64,000 nucleotides of DNA, taken from NCBI GenBank assembly GCA_003228915.1, contig QIGL01000102.1, positions 3,519 through 67,518 of the forward strand. The letters are read 5' to 3'. The notes under the pieces were generated by a model. That model was not told where the DNA came from and ran no database searches. It worked only from the letters and a program-made list of their open reading frames with translations. This document shows positions 1,461 through 14,035 of this stretch, piece by piece. The position numbers were made by a program, and so were the translations under genes. The DNA comes from Acidiferrobacteraceae bacterium. GTDB lineage: Bacteria; Pseudomonadota; Gammaproteobacteria; Acidiferrobacterales; SZUA-150. Within the stretch, counting starts at the first letter, position 1, and the number at the start of each line of letters is the position of its first letter.

Positions 1461-1697
1461 CCAAAGCCGAGAAAGCGGCTAAAAAGAAGAAAAATAAAGA
1501 CAAGGGCAAAAGAAGAGACAAGCTCAAGCTGAAGGTCAAACCTAAAGCAGAGAAAAAGGAAGAATAACTAGCACAAATCTGCGCTTTATGGGGGGGCTGC
1601 TTTATACTGAAAGCCTGCGGTCGGAAACGTTGAATTTATAACTCCAATATGCTTAAATGTGTATAATATAGTTGAATTATACACATTGGTGATTGCC

Positions 1698-1892
1698 ATG
1701 CGAACAAATATTGTAATAGATGATGAACTCATGGACGAGGCTCTTAAACTCTCTGAGACAAAAACAAAACGTGAAGTAGTTGAGCTTGGCCTTAAAGCCT
1801 TGATTAAGATAAAAAAACAAGAAAATATTAAGCAATTTAAAGGCAAACTGAAATGGACTGGCAACCTCAAAGCAATAAGAGCCAGTAGATGA
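1698..1892 (+). CDS. vapB: VapB-family type II antitoxin (start moved to internal ATG at 1698)
   Basis: MRTNIVIDDELMDEALKLS... is the typical VapB N-terminus; stop overlaps the vapC start in ATGA (1889-1892). Confidence 0.8.
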   Translation: MRTNIVIDDELMDEALKLSETKTKREVVELGLKALIKIKKQENIKQFKGKLKWTGNLKAIRASR

Positions 1893-2281
1893 TATTCGTC
1901 GATTCGAGCGTTTGGATTGATTATTTTAACGGTAATTCCTCCCCTGAAGTCGAAAAACTTGACGCACTGCTAGGAGCCGAACCAATATCTACGGGTGATC
2001 TTATATTGGCAGAAGTTCTCCAGGGCTTCAGAAATGACAAAGACTACAAAACGGCTAAAAGCCTTCTCACCTCTTTAACCATTTTCAATATGCTAGATAC
2101 TAATATTGCTATCAAGAGCGCTGATAATTTTAGACTACTAAGAAAAAAAGGCATTACCGTCAGGAAGACAGTAGATACAATAATTGCTACTTTTTGTATT
2201 CAAAATAAATTATCACTTCTTCATACAGATAAAGATTTTCGACCTTTCCATAAACACTTACGCTTAAAAAATGCCTTGTAG
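1889..2281 (+). CDS. vapC: VapC-family PIN-domain ribonuclease toxin
   Basis: MIFVDSSVWIDYF (first PIN acidic residue context), 130 aa, translationally coupled to the upstream antitoxin. Confidence 0.85.
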   Translation: MIFVDSSVWIDYFNGNSSPEVEKLDALLGAEPISTGDLILAEVLQGFRNDKDYKTAKSLLTSLTIFNMLDTNIAIKSADNFRLLRKKGITVRKTVDTIIATFCIQNKLSLLHTDKDFRPFHKHLRLKNAL

Positions 2282-2397
2282 CACATGACGATTAAGGCCA
2301 GCGGCTGTAAAGCCGTCCGACTGGGGCAATTTGTTAGACGACAACTTTATATTTAACATATTTAAAATCAGAGCAGAAACTTCTTTAACAAAAATCA

Positions 2398-2469
2398 AGT
2401 TTTGACTCTGACACTAAATATCTATTTCATAACCCAAGGATACTGAGTTTTGACTCTGGCCCTAAATAT
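2398..2469. repeat. Two 24-nt direct repeats (agttttgactctgRcMctaaatat) with 48-nt period
   Basis: 2398-2421 and 2446-2469 match at 21/24 positions; located at the point where base composition drops. Confidence 0.7.
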
Positions 2470-2483
2470 ATTTGAAGTGCTTG

Positions 2484-4598
2484 TTAGGCTTTTTCTCCAA
2501 AATATATTTCTTTTGCACGATCGGTAATCTTATTGACAGTAACATTGTCTTTAATTTCTTTGTCAACAAGATTTATGTCTTTTAATGTTTTCGTACGCCA
2601 CCCCACTAATTGATGTGACTTATCAATTAGCGCTGAAACCTCCCCAGCTCGCATTTCTCTATCTTCTGAATACAATACTTCCAGTATGTCCAGCTCAACC
2701 TCTTCGAGTTTTAAATCGTCATTTAGTGTTTGCAATTCATTTATATAGTCATCGGACAAAGACACTTCGCTACATCTTCCTTGTTTACATTCTCTACACT
2801 GCCAATCGAAGTATTTTATTTTATCTCTATCTTCTATAGGGTATGTTGCGTCACATATATCACATTTAATAGTCACTGTTGAAGCAAGAAACTGGTGAAT
2901 AACACTATTAAATGAAAAGCATCTTTGAACAAAATAGCTACGATCATCTCGACGACCCTTGGGATAACCCCACGCAAGCCTCTTGTCTTCACATAGGCCA
3001 TAATTCAAGCAGTAAACGGATACATCCTCGCCAGATTTATTCCTCATCTCGTGGTATTTTGTGACTAGAAAATTCAACTCCAATGAAGCTAACATGGGCT
3101 CTAATGTTGGGTAAATTGTAAAGTGACTCACGGGAGGATTACTTAATCTTTCAAAATACTTCCCTCCAACTTCACCTGTTGAGATTTTTGATTTTAATGA
3201 CCCAGCTTCCGAAGTCAGCTTTTCCAGTAGAATTTGTTGATTGCGACGGTCTAGCTTTCTTGAAAAAGGTTCAGTAGCAAAACGGTTTTTTCTATCAAAA
3301 TAAGCAGATAGCACTTTCTCATAATGCTTTTTTGAGGCAAGCCTAATGCTTTGTAAGGTTATTTTTTCACTTCGAGATATTTGATCAAGATAGCAAGTGT
3401 GAAGTATATGGCCAATTAACCTAGGGACATTAAAGGAAACCTGAAATAGTAGCGAGTAATATTCTTTTAATTCCACTGCTGATGAGAAGAAATCAACAGG
3501 GTTAATACCAAAAGATCGAAACCTATTTTCTAATAGCCTCTTAGTATAGTCAGTGGCCTTTTCCTCCATAGTCTGAACTTCACTGCTTTTATACAGGTTA
3601 AAAAAGTCCAAGTTAATGATGTCAATTTTTCCTGGGTCTATATTTCCGTAATAAACTCGCCCTGGGTAAGCAGCCACCTTTAGTTTTATCTTCTCATCAC
3701 TAGTATTGTTCAGCGGCGCAAGTATAACATCGACAAATAACCTTTGATCAATCCAATTTAGCTCTGAGAAATCGTCAAAAAATACAATCAGACTTGAAAA
3801 AGAAAGTTCATCCAATAATGACGAAAGTTTTATAATGAAATCTTGATAGGGGAAGGTTCTTAACACGGCGCTTGAATATTTAGAATATAATTCATCATCA
3901 TCAAGCACCTCATCGACACTACCTGATCTTAGGTTGAAGCTGCCTGTTGGAAGAACAGGGTTTGCTGAAACCTTAACTTCAGCCGACTCATCTTTTTTAT
4001 TTAATGATCGATGTCTATTTTTGGCCTCATTTTCTATAGATTGCAAGATCGGAATTTCGGTTTCGTTCATAATTCCACTTCTAACCTGCTCCTTGAGCTT
4101 ATTTAATTCTCTTTGCAGATCCTCGTACTTCCAATGCTTACCTAAAAATCTATCAACAATCCCTGTTTTTTTACAGATGCCATCTAATTCATCTATGAGC
4201 CTTGAGAACACCTCGATTAAAAATGATTTCCTAAGTAGGTGCGGCTGTATTACTTCATTATCAAACTCATAACCATCTGGAATTTTTGATAGAACGTCAG
4301 ATGTTTGTGAGCTTTCGTTAATAGATTTAACATCTAAGTAGACAGACAGAGATTCCTTTTTAGTTCTTATCTCTGATTGTGCTCTAGCTATTATCGTACT
4401 CTTTCCGGTGCCTTTTCGTCCAAACAAAAATGTCGTGTTGCCAGAAAGAACTGTGTCTAGGACGGCATTATTCTCAAGAGGGTCAACATAAACAGCGTCG
4501 ACGGGTCTATCGCCGAGCTCAGCCTCAAATTCTTTAAGTTCAGCTCTCTGAAATTTTCTTAGTGATTCCGCAACTCTTGAGAACTTTTTGTGTTCCAT
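2484..4598 (-). CDS. Large P-loop NTPase with 4-Cys ribbon and C-terminal winged-helix-like domain; family not recognised
   Basis: 704-aa ORF, ATG preceded by gaggaaggaag RBS; Walker A GRKGTGKST (aa 60-68, nt 4395-4421); Walker B-like LIVFFDDFSE (aa 270-279); CDIC...CRECKQGRC (aa 579-609); very AT-rich. Confidence 0.75.
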   Translation of the reverse strand: MEHKKFSRVAESLRKFQRAELKEFEAELGDRPVDAVYVDPLENNAVLDTVLSGNTTFLFGRKGTGKSTIIARAQSEIRTKKESLSVYLDVKSINESSQTSDVLSKIPDGYEFDNEVIQPHLLRKSFLIEVFSRLIDELDGICKKTGIVDRFLGKHWKYEDLQRELNKLKEQVRSGIMNETEIPILQSIENEAKNRHRSLNKKDESAEVKVSANPVLPTGSFNLRSGSVDEVLDDDELYSKYSSAVLRTFPYQDFIIKLSSLLDELSFSSLIVFFDDFSELNWIDQRLFVDVILAPLNNTSDEKIKLKVAAYPGRVYYGNIDPGKIDIINLDFFNLYKSSEVQTMEEKATDYTKRLLENRFRSFGINPVDFFSSAVELKEYYSLLFQVSFNVPRLIGHILHTCYLDQISRSEKITLQSIRLASKKHYEKVLSAYFDRKNRFATEPFSRKLDRRNQQILLEKLTSEAGSLKSKISTGEVGGKYFERLSNPPVSHFTIYPTLEPMLASLELNFLVTKYHEMRNKSGEDVSVYCLNYGLCEDKRLAWGYPKGRRDDRSYFVQRCFSFNSVIHQFLASTVTIKCDICDATYPIEDRDKIKYFDWQCRECKQGRCSEVSLSDDYINELQTLNDDLKLEEVELDILEVLYSEDREMRAGEVSALIDKSHQLVGWRTKTLKDINLVDKEIKDNVTVNKITDRAKEIYFGEKA

Positions 4599-4715
4599 TA
4601 TTCTTCCTTCCTCAAGGATAACTTACTTATATTCTGTGCGAGTGAGCCTAACAATTTGTAGTATTTAATGGAGTCAGCATTCTCACAAATTTATATCTAG
4701 AGACCACGTAATTAT

Positions 4716-5552
4716 TTAATTTTTCTTTGGATTCTCCGTCACATTCGTACCACCAGACACATCTGTTATTATTGAGCTAGGTCTTAACCCAAGTTCTGGA
4801 TCATGTAGACCTAATCCTGTAGGTCGAGTTAGTCCCAAGCTGGCTGGCCTAGAAATTCCAAAACCTACGTGTCTGTTATCCAAAAAATCTCCAAAACCGC
4901 CTAAGCCAATCCTTTTGTCCAATAATTCCTTTTCAAGAACAGCTATTTGTTTTTTCTTTTCTTTCACTTCATCATCAAGCCTTTTGCGCGCATCCTCTGA
5001 TGTTCCTTTTTTCTCAACTAGCTCATTTTTTAAACTTTGCAACTCTTCTCCCCTTCCATCTAGTTGTTGCTTTAAATCACTAATTAAACCAATCTGAGTT
5101 TTAATATCTGCTTCTGGCACAATATCCGTCCAATTCTCTACAGAATTAACAGTTTCTTCTTCTAATACGTTACATATTGCTATTATTTCTTCATAATTTC
5201 TCTTCGTGACTTCAGGATGAATTTTAATATCTCCATCACTGCCTATAAAAAGTGAAACTCTTTTCTCAAGTGCAGAAATATTTCGTAATAATAATTTAAG
5301 ACTACGGACTGCCGACTTACCACGAGCAACAACAACTCCACCATCTGAAATATCAACCCAATGTTTTGTAATTCGACCACCCAAGATCGCAGATGCTGCA
5401 GTAATTAAAACAAACAAAAGCGAAGTAATTTTCTTGTCTGTCTGATCAATTGAGAATAAAAATAGCAGCAGTACCCCGATACTCAGCACGAGAGTCCATG
5501 GATCCAAAGCAATACCAATAAACGATATCCACTTACTTTTTAAATTTTTCAT
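4716..5552 (-). CDS. Membrane protein with 2 predicted N-terminal TM helices, coiled-coil region and Gly/Leu-rich tail; family not recognised
   Basis: 278-aa ORF; hydrophobic stretches WISFIGIALDPWTLVLSIGVLLLFLFSI and ITSLLFVLITAASAILGG; charged heptad-like segment; 117 nt upstream of the NTPase gene on the same strand. Confidence 0.65.
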   Translation of the reverse strand: MKNLKSKWISFIGIALDPWTLVLSIGVLLLFLFSIDQTDKKITSLLFVLITAASAILGGRITKHWVDISDGGVVVARGKSAVRSLKLLLRNISALEKRVSLFIGSDGDIKIHPEVTKRNYEEIIAICNVLEEETVNSVENWTDIVPEADIKTQIGLISDLKQQLDGRGEELQSLKNELVEKKGTSEDARKRLDDEVKEKKKQIAVLEKELLDKRIGLGGFGDFLDNRHVGFGISRPASLGLTRPTGLGLHDPELGLRPSSIITDVSGGTNVTENPKKN

Positions 5553-5756
5553 TCAGAATTACTCTTGTTGGGTATAATAGAATACGTGGCTGCTTAACTT
5601 AATACTTCACCAGCTAGTAGAATACTCTCTCGTTACACAATCTTCTATAAAAATTTACCTGTACCTCAATTAAAATTAGGTCGTTCTTACAAAAATTCTG
5701 CTAGATTCCAATCAAACCTACCTTGGAATGGTTGCAACAGTGGCCTCAATAAATCT

Positions 5757-5971
5757 AACCCGCTCCCGAATTAACCCCTGAATATTCCTAAACGCCTGCT
5801 CACGATAACTGCCCTTCTATACAACAATCCAATACGTCTACTGGGTTTGGCATCTTTCTTTGTTTGCTTTTTGGGGCCTGCAAGCTCGGGCATGAGCGTT
5901 AGCCCCATCCCCTCGGCTACCATAAAGCGCAGGGTTTCCAGGCTGGATGCATGAAAGGCGGCGTTTTCTGT
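5757..5971 (-). pseudogene. Degenerate duplicate of the 3' end of oxyR
   Basis: Aligns to 8110-8352. The ~95-nt segment 5877-5971 vs 8258-8352 has 1 mismatch. The remainder is diverged with indels (about 28 nt shorter), so it cannot encode the OxyR C-terminus. Confidence 0.85.
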
Positions 5972-5982
5972 CTAAAATCTGG

Positions 5983-6049
5983 ATTCCCGTTTCCACGGGA
6001 ATGACGGGAAAGACGGGAAAGACGGGCAGATAATGTTGGAATGACGAGA
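5983..6049. repeat. ATTCCC-N8-GGGAAT hairpin followed by reiterated GACGGG units
   Basis: attcccgtttccacgggaat at 5983-6002, then gacgggaaagacgggaaagacgggcagataatgttggaatgacgag; same module recurs at 7871-7919. Confidence 0.8.
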
Positions 6050-6113
6050 CTTGTGATATTGGGTTGTGTGATACGCGCTTCCGAAATTAGCAGCACCTAT
6101 TCATACCTGGCTG

Positions 6114-7406
6114 CTATTTCTTGCTATTCAAGCCTTCAAAAGCAAAAGGATTTAAAAACTGTCGTCCCCAAAAAAGATTTCTATCCACTTTGCTTAACTC
6201 GGCCTCATCACAAACTTCTTGCCAGTATTTCTCAATTATTTCTTTTTGATGCTCAAAAATAGCCAGGGCTTCCTCTTTTGAGAGCAGGAAATGATGGGCA
6301 GCATCTATGCCGCTTGAAATCCTGCTCATGCGATTATCGCCAGCAATTAACATGGCCTGCGAGGCTTCATTACCAGTTCTGCCCTGGGGGCATATATCAT
6401 AGGCGGGGGTTAGGGAGAGCATTTTTCCATCCCAGAATGCCGCATGGTTGCGCGCATGATCATCAGTATTGCCGCATAAGATATTAAAAATTAAACGCGA
6501 GAATAATTCTTTCAGCGTAGCGGCAGGTGCTGTGAATTTATGGCGAATAATTTCTGTAAGGGTTTCATAGCTGGCATATCTTGCCATCATTTCGTCAAGA
6601 CCAAACAGTGTTAATGCTGAAATCATGGACTGACGTTGCCAGCCATTTTTTACTTTCTTGCGATCAAATCGTTCAACCAGCAAAACATCTTTACGGGATG
6701 CTTTCTTGAGCTTAACAGGGGCCACCTCTAAACCGACATGCTTTGCCAATCTCATGGCGATAAATTCTGCCTTGACGATGCTGTATAAATCAGAGCTTAA
6801 AGGAAATTTTGCGACATACTTTTTGTTTTCAGCCTCAATGAGTGCTTTTGGTCGGGCACCGCCAATCGCGCTGCCATGAAACAGGGCTTGATCTAATTCC
6901 GGCGTAAGCGGAACGCCTGCTTCAACACGTTCGGTTGATTTTAATAACTCGTCTAGCGCAACATTGACAGATGAGCGCGGCACATATTCGGTTGGTGACA
7001 ATTGAAAATCGAGCGCGCCAACACGGTCTGATCCAGATTCCAGTAGATAAGTTAGCTCATCAAGCCGGGTTGTATCTGTATCCGCGCCTTTCAGTCCCAG
7101 CTTTTTGTTAATAATAACACGCCGTCCCCATGCGTCTGGCGCACCATCCCTAATACATCCAGGCATGTTAAGACCATCCAGCAAAGGCAAAACACCTGCC
7201 CTTAATGGCAGCTCTTTTTCATAAATAGATATTGCCTGTTTTGTACCTGGCCCTGAATTGTTAGCGCGCTCCAAATAACTTTTGCCGTAATTGAACATAA
7301 GGCTGCCATTATCGGCTTCAAGCTTACCTGCGATCACAGGCGCTGTGTCCTGTGGCAGCCAAATCCAGACAAAGGCTTCGTTATGCGCTGCGTTAGAAAT
7401 CATCAT
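6114..7406 (-). CDS. hipA: HipA-family serine/threonine kinase toxin
   Basis: 430 aa; catalytic-loop-like GNTDDHARNHA; 14-nt overlap with the upstream XRE-HTH gene. Confidence 0.85.
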   Translation of the reverse strand: MMISNAAHNEAFVWIWLPQDTAPVIAGKLEADNGSLMFNYGKSYLERANNSGPGTKQAISIYEKELPLRAGVLPLLDGLNMPGCIRDGAPDAWGRRVIINKKLGLKGADTDTTRLDELTYLLESGSDRVGALDFQLSPTEYVPRSSVNVALDELLKSTERVEAGVPLTPELDQALFHGSAIGGARPKALIEAENKKYVAKFPLSSDLYSIVKAEFIAMRLAKHVGLEVAPVKLKKASRKDVLLVERFDRKKVKNGWQRQSMISALTLFGLDEMMARYASYETLTEIIRHKFTAPAATLKELFSRLIFNILCGNTDDHARNHAAFWDGKMLSLTPAYDICPQGRTGNEASQAMLIAGDNRMSRISSGIDAAHHFLLSKEEALAIFEHQKEIIEKYWQEVCDEAELSKVDRNLFWGRQFLNPFAFEGLNSKK

Positions 7407-7731
7407 CTACCGCCCTTATTTTTTTGCGCACGGATTTAGGCAGTAATGCCAATTTATCTTCAGTCTGACGGATATGCCTTGTGAGTCTTGTTGCATCGAC
7501 ATCAAACAGCTTGACGCCAACAAGCGTGGCAACTTCAAATACTGCACCGATCTCACATTTTAGATCACCTTTCTCTATACGTTGAAGTAGCCCTCTTGAG
7601 ATGCCTGCACGCTCAGCAACCTCCTGGGTTGTAAGCTTGCGCTCTTTTCTGGCAATCCTGATCAGATTGCTTATGAGCTGTACTGCTTCCCGGCTATACA
7701 GGGAATAGGTGCGTGTCTTTGATTTAGGCAT
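7393..7731 (-). CDS. hipB: HipB-like XRE-family HTH antitoxin
   Basis: 112 aa; LTTQEVAERAGISRGLLQRIEKGD helix-turn-helix; immediately upstream of and overlapping hipA. Confidence 0.8.
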   Translation of the reverse strand: MPKSKTRTYSLYSREAVQLISNLIRIARKERKLTTQEVAERAGISRGLLQRIEKGDLKCEIGAVFEVATLVGVKLFDVDATRLTRHIRQTEDKLALLPKSVRKKIRAVDDDF

Positions 7732-7870
7732 ATTTACGTATCTGGTCTATATATAACTCATAATACATCTTTGTGATCTCTATATAGATCAAATTAGCAC
7801 TAGAGTTGCGTGAAATCAAGAAAGTATGTCGATATGTGTGAAATTCCTGTCTTTTTTAACAAAACTCTGG

Positions 7871-8030
7871 ATTCCCGTTTCCACGGGAATGACGGGCAGA
7901 TAATGATGGAATGACGAGGTATGTCGTGCTGGAGTGACGGGGATGACGGGGATGACGAGGTAGGTCGGGTATGACGGGTATGACGGGCAGATAATGATGG
8001 AATGACGAGGTATGTCGTGCTGGAGTGACG
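7871..8030. repeat. Hairpin repeat plus 49-nt direct repeat and short (A/G)TGACG(G/A)G tandem units
   Basis: attcccgtttccacgggaat 7871-7890; gacgggcagataatgatggaatgacgaggtatgtcgtgctggagtgacg at 7891-7939 and 7982-8030; gatgacgggg/tatgacgggt units between them. Confidence 0.85.
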
Positions 8031-8097: not shown

Positions 8098-8991
8098 TTA
8101 AAGGTCACCAACCCGCTCCCGAATTAACCCCTGAATATTCCTGAACGCCTCCGCACGATAGCTCCCCTTGCGATACAACATGCCGATGCGTCTGCTGGGT
8201 TTGGGTGCTTCGAATGGCAGGTAACGTATCGCATCTTTTTTTGATTGCTTTTTGGGCACTGCAAGCTCGGGCATGAGCGTTAGCCCCATCCCCTCGGCTA
8301 CCATAAAGCGCAGGGTTTCCAGGCTGGATGCATGAAAGGCTGCGTTTTCTGTGGCGCCGGCCATGAAGCAAACATCCAGCGCCTGGTCACGCAGGCAGTG
8401 GCCTTCTTCCAGTAATAGCATTTCACGGTTATTGAGATCGCCCATGGTTATCATTGGCTGGCTGGCCAGTGGCTCGCCCGCAGGGACTGCCAACAGAAAA
8501 GGCTCTTTAAATAACTCCAGCTCGCTGAATTCTTCGGTTTCCACCGGCAGGGCCAGTATCAAAAAATCCAGCTCGGCGCGGCGGAGCTTCTCAAGCAATA
8601 CCGAGGTCTGGTATTCATGGAGCCACAACTTGAGCTTTGGCCAGGTTTTACCGAGGGCAGGCATAATGGCTGGTAGCAGGTACGGCGCGATGGTGGGGAT
8701 CAGCCCTGCGTGCAATTCCCCGGCCATAGGGTCTTCAAAACTCTGGGCAATCTCCTGGATGCCTTTTACATCGGCCAGTACTTTTCTGGCCATTTCGGCC
8801 ACGGCTGAGCCAGCATTGGTCATGGCTACCTGCCGGGTATTACGCTCTACCAGTAATACGCCCAGCTCCTGCTCCAGCTTTTTTAGCTGGCCACTCAATG
8901 TGGGCTGGCTGACAAAACAACGGGCAGCGGCCTTGTGAAAATGGCGTTCTTCATCAATGGCGACCAGGTATAGCAATACTCGTAAATTCAT
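8098..8991 (-). CDS. oxyR: Hydrogen-peroxide-sensing LysR-family regulator OxyR
   Basis: N-terminal HTH ...VSQPTLSGQLKKLEQELG; EEGHCLRDQALDVCF keeps both redox cysteines (E. coli C199/C208 context); divergent from a peroxiredoxin gene. Confidence 0.9.
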   Translation of the reverse strand: MNLRVLLYLVAIDEERHFHKAAARCFVSQPTLSGQLKKLEQELGVLLVERNTRQVAMTNAGSAVAEMARKVLADVKGIQEIAQSFEDPMAGELHAGLIPTIAPYLLPAIMPALGKTWPKLKLWLHEYQTSVLLEKLRRAELDFLILALPVETEEFSELELFKEPFLLAVPAGEPLASQPMITMGDLNNREMLLLEEGHCLRDQALDVCFMAGATENAAFHASSLETLRFMVAEGMGLTLMPELAVPKKQSKKDAIRYLPFEAPKPSRRIGMLYRKGSYRAEAFRNIQGLIRERVGDL

Positions 8992-10820: not shown

Positions 10821-11918
10821 TTACAGCCCCCAGGAACGGGCCTGTAATTCATCACGCAGGCGTTGCACAGCAAGTTTTTCGGACCCGTCATAATTGCTCA
10901 ACCCCAGTGTCCAGAGGTAATATTTGAATTCTGCATTGCCAGACAGCCCGAACTCCAAAACCCATTGGTCGACCGTGGCCTCGTTGACATCATATTGCCA
11001 GGTAAAATCGATTAAGTTTATCCGATCCATATGTTTGTCCCAGGCCTTGAATACCGCGGATATAAAATCGGCCTGCAAGGCCTCGCTACTATTGTTAACC
11101 ATGCTCGATGGGTAACCACTTTCCTGAAGTAAGATTGGTTTAGTGATGATTGTGCTGGTCATTAAATCAAAATCAGCCGCGACTGTAGCAGGTGGTCGCA
11201 TGGTAAAATCTGCATTCAGCGGATAATAGGTAAGCGCCGCGCTATCAAGCTGGGGTAAAAAATTTAAATACTGCGTACGTACACCTATATTTTCCAGCGC
11301 GCTGAATTGAATAATGCTGCTGACTACTACGTTGGCGCCCCAAAGGCTTTTTATCTTGCTCTTAGCAGCCACAAAAAACGCTTGCCACTGAGACCACTTG
11401 GTCGCATCACTTCCGAGGCTGACATCAATTTCGTTACCCACATGAATCCATTTCAGTTTGCCAGTAACATTGAGTGTTGTCAGTTGACCGTGCAGGTTTG
11501 TCAAAAAATTACCGAAGGCGGTAATTACCAGCGGGTCATTAAAAGCTTTGCCTGCCAGGTCGCTGGGCAGGCTTGGCCCAATTGTATCCAGTGGCCGTAG
11601 AACCAGTGTGAGATCACCCGTTTGTATCGAATAAAAAGAATCGATAGTAGAGAGCAAGGTATTAATATAATTACCCTCCATAGGCTCAAGTGATGCCCAG
11701 TCCAAAGACACACTGACCTCGCGCACGCCCAGCGCCATGGCCTGATCGTACGCCATGGCATAACTGACAGTTGGCACAGATTTTATATCCATGCCAAGCA
11801 CACGCGTACCCTGTGCCGGTGGTGGGCCAGGATTATTTGAATTACCACCACCGCTGCTACCACAGCCGGCTATAAGCAATAAAAGAAAAATTAATATTAG
11901 ATTCTTAAATATCAACAT
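10821..11918 (-). CDS. Lipoprotein, clan GH-A-like glycoside hydrolase (TIM barrel)
   Basis: Lipobox LLLIAGCGSSGG; HVGNEID (acid/base NE) and LLQESGYPS (candidate nucleophile Glu) spaced as in GH5-like enzymes. Confidence 0.55.
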   Translation of the reverse strand: MLIFKNLILIFLLLLIAGCGSSGGGNSNNPGPPPAQGTRVLGMDIKSVPTVSYAMAYDQAMALGVREVSVSLDWASLEPMEGNYINTLLSTIDSFYSIQTGDLTLVLRPLDTIGPSLPSDLAGKAFNDPLVITAFGNFLTNLHGQLTTLNVTGKLKWIHVGNEIDVSLGSDATKWSQWQAFFVAAKSKIKSLWGANVVVSSIIQFSALENIGVRTQYLNFLPQLDSAALTYYPLNADFTMRPPATVAADFDLMTSTIITKPILLQESGYPSSMVNNSSEALQADFISAVFKAWDKHMDRINLIDFTWQYDVNEATVDQWVLEFGLSGNAEFKYYLWTLGLSNYDGSEKLAVQRLRDELQARSWGL

Positions 11919-12172
11919 ATTTTCCTTTTGTAATAACCCGGTAATAATTTAAATAGGCGTTATTTAGGCAGGCTGGGCAATCTATTTCCTGTCAACGCTT
12001 ACTAATAACCAGGACACTAATTCTGGAGAATTTTGAAAAATATTTATAAAAAGAACAGAAGTGCGATAATTAATCACGCATTTTAAAATGGTTTACAGAA
12101 ATGCGAACGATTCCTGCCGGGGGGTTCGTTTTATTACAACTGCTTGCGATTAGATCCAGGAATTGGTCGTGA

Positions 12173-12433
12173 TTATTCAATAGATAAACCACTAAAATCA
12201 TAGTTCATATCATCTACATCACACTCAGCACCAGTTTTATCAATTGCATCCTTGTATTTTTTGGCATCGTCAAGCGAAAGATTTTCTTTAATTATTTTCG
12301 GCGCAGAACATAATAATTCCTTGGCCTTTTCATGTGATATCTTGAAGAGTTTCGCAAGGTCTTCCTCAATATAATGCTCACCTTTACCGGCGGTGTAACC
12401 CTTCAAAACTACTTTATAATGTTCATCAGACAT
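12173..12433 (-). CDS. Small hypothetical protein (86 aa)
   Basis: Isolated ORF with a plausible ATG; no family recognised. Confidence 0.4.
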   Translation of the reverse strand: MSDEHYKVVLKGYTAGKGEHYIEEDLAKLFKISHEKAKELLCSAPKIIKENLSLDDAKKYKDAIDKTGAECDVDDMNYDFSGLSIE

Positions 12434-12658
12434 TGCCTTTCTCCACTCACCCTTGATTCAACATAATACTTTAAGCCAATTTCATGTGTGCGCCCGCTAC
12501 CTGAGATTGGCCATTATTAGCGCTATTTCTCAGGGACACTGGCCATATCTATGAGTTTAGATTAAAAATAGGGGTTGACACTCTTTTTTATCGATTTTTA
12601 AACCTTCCGACCCTGTTTAACAGTGTTTTTTTTATTTCGCAGGCCCTTTTAACAACAT

Positions 12659-14035
12659 TTATCGACTCGTCAGGGTTTTTTGCAATATATCCTGGTAATC
12701 CCTGATTCTCTGGACATAAAGTACCGGCTCGCGGCCGCGAGCATAACCATGTTTTAACCCTGGATAGTAGTTTTTGTCTGATAGTAATGGCAATACTTTG
12801 GATATTTCCCGCCATAAATCCGGATTTCTTTTAAGTTGGCGTGCCAATGTGCGGGCATCATAAATATGGCCCATACCGATGTTATAGGCGGCCAATGCAT
12901 ACCAACTGCGATCAGGCTCCTTGATGCTTTCGGGTAACCGTTGATATAAGTTGGCATAATATCTGGCCCCGCCACTAATACTTTGTGCCGGATCCTGGCG
13001 ATTTTCGATGCCGAGCCCCCTGGCAGTATTAAGCGTTAACATCATGATGCCCCGCACGCCCGTTGGGCTTTTGGCATTAGCTCGCCAGCGTGATTCCTGG
13101 TAGGCCTGGGCGGCAATTAGCATCCATTGCAGGTCATTTTCTTTTGCTGCTTGTTTAAACATATCCCGGTAAAGCGGCAAGATCTTCTCTATGCTGCGCA
13201 CGAAAGCACGGGTATTCACGTAATCGAATATCTTGATATAACCGTAATAGCGATTATCCAGTTCTGCTAGCTGACCGGATTTTTTAAATTTGTTAAACCA
13301 TTTTTTAATTTCCTGTTGCAGTGGTCTTGCCTTGGGACTCATAAGCCAGACCAAAGGTTCGGCTTTGGTAAGGCTAAAGCGAACTGATAGTTCAGGATAA
13401 TAACGACGGTTGATTGCGACAATATTTGAATCTGCTACCGTACAGTCCAGTTTCTTTAACCAGACTTGTTCCAGTAAAATTTCAGTGTTAAGCCCGGCGC
13501 CTGTTTGCCATTGCAGTTCTTTATATTTTTGTTTTAGGCGAATCAGATTTTCTTCATAGCTTGTATTTTCCGGAACAAGTATCTGCACATCAGTCAAGTC
13601 ATTAATATTTTTAGGTCGTTTGCCGCCATTTCGACAGACTACTTGCTGTTGTACTTTTTGGTATACCGGCCCGAATAAAAACTGGTCGTCTCGCTCTTTC
13701 GTTTTCGTCAGTCCAGCTGCCGCTATATGTGCCTCGCCATTGGTAATGGCTGAAATTATTTCAGCTGTAGATTCTTTTTCTATAAATTTTACTTTGACGC
13801 CAAGGTGCTCGGCAAATGCAAGGGCCATGTCATGCTCAAAACCCATCCATTCGTCATGCAGCTCATAGTAAGTAGTTGGTGCATTCCTGGTAACAACAAT
13901 GAGTTGTTTTTTTTCTTTAATAGACTGGAGCGCTTTTTCTCCAATTATTTTTTCCGAGCAGGCACTTAATACTACTAGCGCTAATATTGATGCCGATAAA
14001 TATAATAATTTTTTTCTATCTCGGTAGCGGGACAT
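12659..14035 (-). CDS. mltF: Membrane-bound lytic murein transglycosylase F
   Basis: Signal/lipobox region, periplasmic-binding-protein-like N-domain and SLT domain (QAYQESRWRANAKSPTGVRGIMMLT). Confidence 0.85.
   Translation of the reverse strand: MSRYRDRKKLLYLSASILALVVLSACSEKIIGEKALQSIKEKKQLIVVTRNAPTTYYELHDEWMGFEHDMALAFAEHLGVKVKFIEKESTAEIISAITNGEAHIAAAGLTKTKERDDQFLFGPVYQKVQQQVVCRNGGKRPKNINDLTDVQILVPENTSYEENLIRLKQKYKELQWQTGAGLNTEILLEQVWLKKLDCTVADSNIVAINRRYYPELSVRFSLTKAEPLVWLMSPKARPLQQEIKKWFNKFKKSGQLAELDNRYYGYIKIFDYVNTRAFVRSIEKILPLYRDMFKQAAKENDLQWMLIAAQAYQESRWRANAKSPTGVRGIMMLTLNTARGLGIENRQDPAQSISGGARYYANLYQRLPESIKEPDRSWYALAAYNIGMGHIYDARTLARQLKRNPDLWREISKVLPLLSDKNYYPGLKHGYARGREPVLYVQRIRDYQDILQKTLTSR

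Follow-up and report, generated by a model that had tools for sequence, protein, structure and literature searches.

Two neighbouring genes on the minus strand are described from the first 6 kb of a 64-kb window, the whole stretch of DNA analysed, of an Acidiferrobacteraceae genome. One encodes a P-loop ATPase of 704 amino acids (aa); the other, upstream of it, encodes a membrane protein of 278 aa. The two open reading frames (ORFs) are co-directional, with a spacer of 117 nucleotides (nt); coordinates are collected in Table 1. The initial annotation had described both ORFs, and both are present. It had assigned to the ATPase a Walker A motif, a Walker B-like stretch and a Cys ribbon, found at those residues, and a C-terminal winged helix, backed by an AlphaFold2 (AF2) model and by MarR/ArsR Pfam matches. 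The two N-terminal hydrophobic helices, charged helical stretch and Gly/Leu-rich tail assigned to the membrane protein are likewise present, and the vapBC and hipBA pairs placed on either side of the genes are borne out by Pfam matches. The whole explanation preferred here, rated slightly above an even balance, is that these are two independent accessory genes in a decayed cassette array: a self-contained ATPase switch and an unrelated membrane protein.

The G + C (GC) content is low. The pair had been reported as the most AT-rich stretch of the window, at 28–33% GC. Its rank stands, the lowest-GC 3-kb stretch of the 64-kb window beginning at about 1400–2500; the figure was too low, the pair having 36.7% GC. 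Lines of 60 nt across the pair have a mean of 36.8%, and 31% of them fall within 28–33%. The window has 45.5% GC, deaD 50.4%, hipBA 45.4% and oxyR 54.0%; vapBC (35.6%) is as low as the gene pair. The claim of a compositionally foreign origin holds for both genes in nearly all loci compared: GC of the ATPase gene is below that of its flanks in 77 of 78 loci (mean –12.6 points) and GC of the membrane-protein gene in 33 of 36 (mean –7.3 points). A promoter and terminator scan of the pair was uninformative, with fewer sites than in shuffled sequence.

The two genes do not form a module. They had been proposed as an NTPase (nucleoside triphosphatase) switch with a membrane effector, and absence of co-occurrence had been named beforehand as an outcome that would refute this. 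The loci compared are 80 ATPase genome loci with the contigs of the closest ATPase relatives, and 76 membrane-protein loci from metagenomes, IMG/VR and contig look-ups. The membrane protein is carried by none of the 75 ATPase loci with at least 1.2 kb of upstream sequence; the ATPase is likewise absent from all 39 membrane-protein loci that extend 2.5 kb or more downstream. When neighbouring ORFs are clustered all against all, no conserved neighbour emerges for either family. Upstream of a 90%-identical ATPase, a DEAD-box helicase gene stands in place of the membrane-protein gene. The ATPase gene is inserted by itself between guaB and xseA in Aeromonas veronii; in Serratia marcescens it has an SDR gene on one side and ssb-uvrA on the other. 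The two genes are independent, and their interpretation as a pair is refuted.

Relatives of both genes occur as integron cassettes. The contig of a 79%-identical ATPase (L173) carries an array of co-oriented small ORFs with imperfect palindromes of about 90–125 nt between them, with RYYYAAC-like boxes at the start and GTTRRRY-like boxes at the end. Such boxed, structured palindromes are the defining features of attC recombination sites. Eleven attC sites of L173 align, with compensatory changes in 7 of 10 stem pairs. Two covariance models were built, R1 on these 11 sites and R2 on 41 sites drawn from 13 loci. Sites of this type adjoin the ATPase gene on both sides in L173, L015 and L011 and downstream in L172 (a 90%-identical relative); in L080 an attC array lies near the gene. 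The membrane-protein gene is adjoined on both sides in L085, L132 and L150 and on one side in L104, L099, L100, L157 and L121; the site in L151 is less closely placed. E-values of the flanking sites are 4e-11 to about 0.015, and every one of the 72 attC matches at E <= 0.1 shares the strand of the gene. Both genes therefore exist as single-ORF integron cassettes in several lineages each. In L103/L104 (8001–9612) an ORF of 212 aa begins 1 nt after the membrane-protein gene and precedes the next attC, giving a cassette of two ORFs; this second ORF is not conserved in other loci. That the ORF alone is the mobile unit was first suggested by the non-coding flanks of close ATPase relatives, in which no conservation extends beyond about 50 nt upstream. 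The cassette nature explains how a single ORF spreads on its own.

The boundaries of such cassettes have counterparts at this locus. A core-site-like GTTAGGC precedes the ATPase gene and is proposed as the 5′ boundary of its cassette. The sequence GTTAGGC-TCAC is common to the window (47 nt before the ATG) and L172 (45 nt before the ATG); the two are identical at 31 of 47 positions between core and ATG and unrelated ahead of the core. In L173, GTTAGGT closes the upstream attC. At the other end of the gene an inverse-core-like box, read as the start of a decayed attC, overlaps the stop codon. A box at or just after the ATPase stop is found in L172 (GCCTAAC-AAG) and L173 (ACCTAAC-AAG), where it opens a significant attC. 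A core-site-like GTTAAGC ahead of the membrane-protein gene is a possible 5′ boundary of the second cassette; in the bona fide cassettes L085, L132 and L150 the core lies 22–46 nt before the ATG, matching the position of this GTTAAGC, a motif that is weak evidence by itself. Core-type 7-mers by themselves are not rare (7 per 4.3 kb), so the boundary argument rests on positional correspondence with relatives. Downstream of the ATPase gene the best R1 match in the window is an attC-like hairpin on the gene's strand, with R″ = GTCTAAC and R′ mutated to GTCATGT; a weaker match lies nearer the gene. It is concluded that about 1500–5750 is probably a decayed cassette array (vapBC, ATPase, membrane protein) between deaD and a fragment of oxyR. 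Co-orientation, the 117-nt spacer, low GC and the toxin-antitoxin (TA) neighbour would thereby be explained without functional coupling.

The ATPase has a fixed domain order. Conservation was read from a 56-sequence family alignment, and fold from the AF2 model (predicted local distance difference test, pLDDT, 81; predicted template modelling score, pTM, 0.76). Invariant in the alignment are G60 to T68 of Walker A, F273 and D275–E279 of the Walker B stretch, and the cysteines C579, C582, C601, C604 and C609. The helical N-terminal segment (aa 1–50) has no Pfam match and is a possible adaptor or effector surface. The P-loop core contains a long helical insert between the Walker motifs and is followed by a helical lid with an invariant N-V-P-R (R393), which may be a sensor-2-like or GxP-like motif. 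The middle, winged-helix-like domain (aa 476–573) carries the near-invariant motif WGYPxGRRDDRSYFVQRCF and matches no Pfam entry or known family. The zinc ribbon gives weak Zn_ribbon and HypA matches in homologues. The terminal winged helix-turn-helix (wHTH) is modelled with helices at 633–645, 651–658 and 662–674, strands at 678–683 and 686–691 and a last helix at 693–699. MarR/ArsR Pfam matches to it are sub-threshold in most members (MarR_2 29.6 bits, cutoff 27, in a plasmid homologue); Lrs14/ArsR NCBIfam matches fall at the same place, and small phage wHTH proteins superpose there. Foldseek comparison of the model with viral structures gave generic AAA+ and small wHTH matches. No nuclease motif, PD-(D/E)xK or other, was found in aa 440–575 by eye against the secondary structure of the model. 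As modelled, the protein combines an ORC/Cdc6- and STAND-like P-loop NTPase with a zinc ribbon and, at its end, a wHTH.

The ATPase family is large and patchily distributed. At 90% identity its homologues fall into more than 805 clusters. When 1.84 billion representatives (50% clustering) were searched exhaustively with the family profile, 570 ATPase proteins matched at E <= 1e-3, 207 of them at E <= 1e-30. Members of full length have about 660–730 aa and match the profile end to end, which indicates a fixed architecture and no domain shuffling. The family has 276 loci among 185,579 species genomes. Members occur in Proteobacteria, Firmicutes, Bacteroidota, Cyanobacteria, Actinomycetota, Planctomycetota, Verrucomicrobiota, Acidobacteriota, Chloroflexota and some archaea. 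Sequences from different phyla are about 50% identical; the best relatives are up to 93% identical.

An ATPase homologue is found in 1 of 72,556 plasmid records: the 6-kb, MOBP mobilizable, ccdAB-carrying plasmid NZ_CP058193 of Enterobacter hormaechei encodes a protein of 718 aa (40% identity; 2830–4986), whose start overlaps the rep stop by 4 nt. Searched by blastn with this plasmid gene, 5,426 complete E. coli genomes gave no ATPase homologue. Each of the two families described here is present on 5–6 viral or proviral contigs of IMG/VR. The filamentous Vibrio phage KSF-1phi (NC_006294) has at 6520–6900 an open frame that encodes the N-terminal ~125 aa of an ATPase-family protein and ends in a stop; the fragment contains the N-terminal helices and GRKGTGKST (47% identity over aligned aa 5–108) and could be a captured host fragment or possibly a decoy. 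In L095 (the contig of P0013; 2136–5760) a 75%-identical ATPase stands beside HEPN_RiboL-PSP, Polbeta nucleotidyltransferase and HTH genes, in a small defence- or TA-like islet that abuts the ilv operon.

The membrane protein is a member of a distinct orphan family, which is unrelated to the ATPase and occurs in defence or mobilome contexts. It has at least 110 homologue clusters; the best relative in 5.8 billion clusters is 67% identical over 77% of the query. Hydrophobic segments are at about aa 9–39 and 41–62 (Kyte-Doolittle 19-residue mean >1.6). The conserved cytoplasmic domain that follows is characterized by ARGKSAVRSLKLL...SIENWTDIVPEADIKTQIG. K/R/D/E content is 45.7% in aa 149–218, and the G/L-rich tail beyond is disordered. 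In some homologues (for example P0201, P0204, P0205, P0210, P0212, P0227, P0228) the tail is replaced by a CxxC...CPxC zinc-ribbon-like ending. Foldseek comparison of the AF2 model (pLDDT 80) with the PDB gave no fold match; the best, AhlC, is at E 0.5, so a pore-forming-toxin fold is not claimed. Neighbouring genes in relatives encode integrases (four cases), NYN (three), Mrr_cat, GmrSD_N and AAA_15/AAA_21 (two each), and AccI, HinP1I, Type ISP and MazF. The product probably acts at the membrane as a small defence or exclusion protein in its own right. The domain EAD9, an adaptor of NTPase-centred conflict systems (Kaur et al. 2020, PMC7159879), was considered as a coupling element of the two proteins and rejected: the membrane protein of the window has no EAD9 at E <= 1 and the ATPase N-terminus has no EAD.

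The other features of the locus are as follows. Two 24-nt direct repeats (AGTTTTGACTCTGACACTAAATAT, 92% identical; 2398–2421 and 2446–2469, 48 nt apart) are situated between the end of vapC and the end of the ATPase gene, where the attC of the ATPase cassette is expected. Relative to the intact LysR/oxyR-like gene (8098–8991), the degraded copy of its 3′ end has a deletion of ~28 nt. hipBA lies between this fragment and the intact gene, as if its insertion had duplicated the 3′ end of oxyR. A dispersed repeat resembling repetitive extragenic palindromic (REP) elements is present on both sides of hipBA (5964–6069 and 7852–8030), with a hairpin (CTGGATTCCCGTTTCCACGGGAATGACGGG) and reiterated GGAATGACGAGGTATGTCG units. 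Another low-GC dip of the window is at 11750–12750 (36.6–39.8% in 500-nt windows).

Table 1. Features of the two genes and of their surroundings. Nucleotide positions are those of the 64-kb window; aa, residues of the encoded protein.
Feature	Residues (aa)	Position (nt)	Strand	Description and evidence
vapB-vapC toxin-antitoxin pair		1659–2281	+ (opposite to ATPase)	Pfam VapB_antitoxin 3.9e-16, PIN 1.3e-12
Weak attC-like hairpin downstream of ATPase		2280–2339	– (gene's strand)	R1 16.7 bits, E 0.1; R2 E 1.8
Weaker attC-like match		2424–2489	–	E 9.8
Inverse-core-like GCCTAAC(AAG), start of decayed attC		2483–2489	–	overlaps ATPase stop codon
ATPase gene	704 aa	2484–4598	–	ORF call
ATPase, MarR/ArsR-type wHTH	633–699	2502–2702	–	AF2 model; Pfam and NCBIfam matches
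ATPase, four-Cys zinc ribbon	575–613	2760–2876	–	C579/C582/C601/C604 plus C609; invariant Cys
ATPase, middle alpha/beta, winged-helix-like domain	476–573	2880–3173	–	alignment; secondary structure of model
ATPase, helical lid domain	341–434	3297–3578	–	model; reciprocal hidden Markov model (HMM) alignment to the lid of the DS-41 family
ATPase, P-loop NTPase core	51–335	3594–4448	–	invariant columns; strand/helix order in model; Foldseek; weak Pfam
ATPase, Walker B	270–279	3762–3791	–	LIVFFDDFSE
ATPase, helical insert between Walker A and Walker B (about 165 aa)	100–265	3804–4301	–	AF2 model
ATPase, Walker A	60–68	4395–4421	–	GRKGTGKST
ATPase, conserved helical N-terminus	1–50	4449–4598	–	S12, L13, R18, A19 invariant; four short helices in model
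Core-site-like GTTAGGC, proposed 5′ boundary of ATPase cassette		4646–4652	–	47 nt before ATPase ATG
Membrane-protein gene	278 aa	4716–5552	–	ORF call
Membrane protein, disordered G/L-rich tail	219–278	4719–4898	–	not conserved in family
Membrane protein, charged helical hairpin	about 151–218	4899–5078 (aa 159–218)	–	AF2 model
Membrane protein, conserved cytoplasmic helical domain	66–158	5079–5357	–	alignment; carries SIENWTDIVPEADIKTQIG
Membrane protein, two transmembrane helices	9–62	5367–5528	–	hydropathy
Core-site-like GTTAAGC, possible 5′ boundary of membrane-gene cassette		5592–5598	–	39 nt before ATG
Degraded copy of oxyR-like gene 3′ end		5757–5971	–	direct repeat, 92–94% identical to 8110–8352
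hipA-hipB		6114–7731	–	HipA_C 2e-47; HTH_3 protein

Neither protein had been assigned to a named family, which agrees with the searches: Pfam, PADLOC v2, PHROGs and the PDB give no significant match, PDB sequence searches (single sequence and profile) yield nothing significant for either, and all NCBIfam matches of the two are sub-threshold. The closest of these for the ATPase is NF047389 (P-loop ATPase, Sll1717 family; E 2.1e-10, 40.3 bits, cutoff 75), with aa 30–434 aligned to profile positions 10–358 of 454; it is matched by 55 of 56 family members at E <= 1e-3 (best 4.3e-14). The DS41_1 anti-phage protein (NF053860, an equivalog profile) follows at E 1.5e-8 (34.1 bits, cutoff 370) and is matched by 24 of 56 members (best 8.5e-10). 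From these sequence matches the family appears to be a longer, architecturally distinct branch, remotely related, of the wider Sll1717 P-loop ATPase superfamily.

DS-41 ('AAA2', WP_033812887.1, 502 aa, E. coli) acts as a single gene; the DefensePredictor study (PMC13092281) validated it against several phages and scored it as a remote Avs1B homologue. Its homologues carry the NCBI name Sll1717 family, some with Pfam ORC-CDC6-like. Both are stand-alone genes, the ATPase having no conserved partner in 80 loci. Both have a segment of about 50 aa before Walker A, similar spacing from Walker A to Walker B (209 aa, K66 to D275, against 195 aa, K58 to D253), a collinear lid with a (V/S)-P-R motif, and a weak Pfam ORC-CDC6-like signal. 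Reciprocal HMMs of the two families align the lid alone (5–12 bits; aa 353–437 against 329–420). The ATPase differs in being about 200 aa longer, and its alpha/beta domain, zinc ribbon and MarR-type wHTH did not align to the DS-41 profile. A predicted defence protein in supplement file 9 of the same study (MSSLVKAFSRNRAEEMG...) has a GGRGCGKT Walker A, and its Walker B context VFVDEYESF...Q..FVN..L resembles the FFDDFSEL..DQRLFVDVIL of the ATPase family; hhalign of the family against this single protein is weak (E 0.008, probability 4.8%).

Among solved structures, the best Foldseek matches of the ATPase model are RdrA (E 1.2e-4) and Orc1/Cdc6 (E 2.4e-4), with low whole-chain template modelling (TM) scores. 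RdrA is a defence-island ATPase that forms rings. It is the RADAR ATPase (PDB 8hra/8hrb) and has the best E-value, over the NTPase region; the ATPase described here differs from RADAR in the absence of an adjacent RdrB deaminase or other conserved neighbour and of a PADLOC RdrA match, and the TM-score is about 0.2. Orc1/Cdc6 (PDB 2qby, 1fnn) likewise unites an AAA+-type NTPase, a helical lid and a winged helix in one chain. The match to 2qby_B (E 2.4e-4, probability 1.0, target-normalised TM 0.44) is fold-level only, and Pfam ORC-CDC6-like reaches 15–18 bits (cutoff 27) on the family. In contrast to Orc1/Cdc6, the ATPase has a large helical insert, an additional zinc ribbon and a second winged-helix domain, is cassette-borne with a patchy distribution, and at most loci is not associated with a replication origin or replicon; sequence identity is 10–13%. 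STAND proteins (Avs, bNACHT and STAND transcription regulators) share the order nucleotide-binding domain, helical domain, winged helix seen in the AF2 model. Pfam nSTAND3/5, NB-ARC and AAA_16 reach 12–17 bits (cutoffs 23–34), so that no STAND model is at cutoff. Unlike Avs and bNACHT, the ATPase has neither a long repeat sensor (TPR, WD40, LRR) nor an N-terminal enzymatic effector, and 704 aa is short for an Avs protein. The family was not placed within a 589-clade STAND survey, and literature searches on Sll1717 and on combined architecture terms gave nothing relevant. The ATPase is a new architectural variant among already known single-gene P-loop ATPase defence candidates.

A defence role had been suggested for the pair. 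It is plausible for each gene alone and falls for the two as a joint module, given the lack of co-occurrence. The ATPase may be a single-protein, ATP-switched, nucleic-acid-sensing immunity or exclusion factor against phages or mobile elements, a reading about as likely to be wrong as right. It is proposed because the gene is carried on cassettes and a plasmid, has a foreign composition, occurs without a partner and is related to DS-41, and because cassettes serve as defence stores. Phage-defence genes, small membrane proteins among them, are documented cargo of integron cassettes (10.1101/2024.07.02.601719; 10.64898/2026.03.17.712381). Like these, relatives of both genes are single-ORF, attC-bounded, co-oriented in arrays and beside TA cassettes; they differ in that no system named in the texts consulted corresponds to either family, and in that the attC sites of the window are decayed and no integrase is seen. 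ATP dependence, DNA binding, oligomerisation and any defence phenotype of the ATPase are predicted properties. The C-terminal half (alpha/beta domain, zinc ribbon, wHTH) is presumed to bind nucleic acid. In the most likely mechanism this module would recognise foreign DNA or an intermediate in the replication of a phage or plasmid; oligomerisation on the recognised ligand would be driven by ATP binding; the assembly itself would then block replication or transcription of the invader, or recruit a host factor via the 50-aa N-terminus.

Several points weigh against the defence reading or the cassette origin on which it draws. The ATPase reaches the curated cutoff of neither NF047389 (75 bits) nor NF053860 (370 bits). 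The hhalign comparison of its family alignment with that of DS-41 gives 7.7% probability, in the lid only, and probabilities against single DS-41 or DefensePredictor sequences are low; the relation to DS-41 is therefore called superfamily-level only. attC sites are present in just 4–5 of 92 ATPase loci. The attC-like matches of the window are non-significant (E 0.1 to 9.8), and a crude six-frame scan of the 64 kb found no tyrosine-recombinase box motifs of an integrase, so cassette status here rests on the boundary correspondence with relatives. No catalytic effector domain is detectable in the ATPase, which makes the proposed output speculative. The fixed architecture and unusually high conservation (about 50% across phyla) are unlike those of many fast-evolving immune sensors. 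Many immediate neighbours of the ATPase gene are housekeeping genes (DnaE in three cases, Hsp70, GlnRS). Integron cassettes also carry many non-defence functions, and for both families the reading is drawn entirely from computation.

That the ATPase is an ATP-dependent regulator of host-gene transcription, MalT/AfsR-like within STAND, and that both genes are ordinary cargo outside phage or plasmid conflict, is unlikely yet the best of the alternatives. Homologues are annotated 'transcriptional regulator' by several sources, the wHTH is of MarR/ArsR type, non-immune STAND regulators are interspersed with defence clades (10.64898/2026.01.04.697583), and most integron cassettes have unknown, diverse functions. 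Such a regulator would need a co-travelling regulon, whereas a single-ORF cassette has none and no conserved target gene or operon adjoins the ATPase gene; nor does this account well for patchy occurrence over bacteria and archaea at about 50% identity between phyla, or for a GC deficit that persists in 77 of 78 hosts.

Very doubtful is a role in replication, partition or maintenance of mobile elements, as an ORC/Cdc6-like initiator or helper, rather than in immunity. Orc1/Cdc6 is among the best structural matches, with weak Pfam ORC-CDC6-like signal; the Enterobacter hormaechei homologue overlaps the end of rep by 4 nt; and an N-terminal fragment is on the filamentous phage KSF-1phi. Against this, the gene is chromosomal in nearly all of ~90 loci with no replicon or element genes conserved around it, stands alone between core genes in Aeromonas and Serratia, is on just one of the 72,556 plasmid records, and travels in a promoterless-type integron cassette, no usual home of replication initiators.

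Barely credible is a single abortive-infection system in which the NTPase senses infection via its DNA-binding tail and activates a membrane-disrupting upstream protein: the genes are co-directional, 117 nt apart, AT-rich and foreign, with no predicted terminator between them, and EAD9 is matched at about the Pfam cutoff (24.8–25.5 bits, cutoff 25) in a few membrane-protein homologues, but co-occurrence is zero in 75 plus 39 informative loci with no conserved partner, the 90%- and 79%-identical ATPases have other neighbours and are bracketed by attC as single-ORF cassettes, the proposed cassette boundary GTTAGGC lies between the two genes, the EAD9 match falls on the charged coiled-coil hairpin of 3 of 35 members, and the ATPase N-terminus has neither EAD9 nor another shared adaptor.

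The outcome is two uncharacterised cassette-borne families in place of one system. For method, the locus is a warning: co-oriented, closely spaced, AT-rich genes beside TA pairs mimic an operon and can be adjacent integron cassettes, each transferred and functioning on its own. The cassette-based phage-defence screens now in use could take up both families as concrete and inexpensive candidates. In its furthest form the preferred reading of the ATPase would be immunity free of an effector: an ORC/Cdc6-like switch that recognises invading DNA by its zinc ribbon and winged helices and, by ATP-driven assembly, occludes an origin or DNA end. No nuclease, no NADase and no membrane effector would take part, and the gene would pass between phyla on an integron cassette of 2.2 kb. 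This form is put forward as improbable. If the ATPase is protective, a widespread, compact immunity gene of about 2.1 kb, with a fixed architecture and present in bacteria and archaea, would join the known repertoire; its output could be no conventional enzymatic effector, and the family could reveal how an ORC/STAND-type switch alone stops a phage or plasmid.

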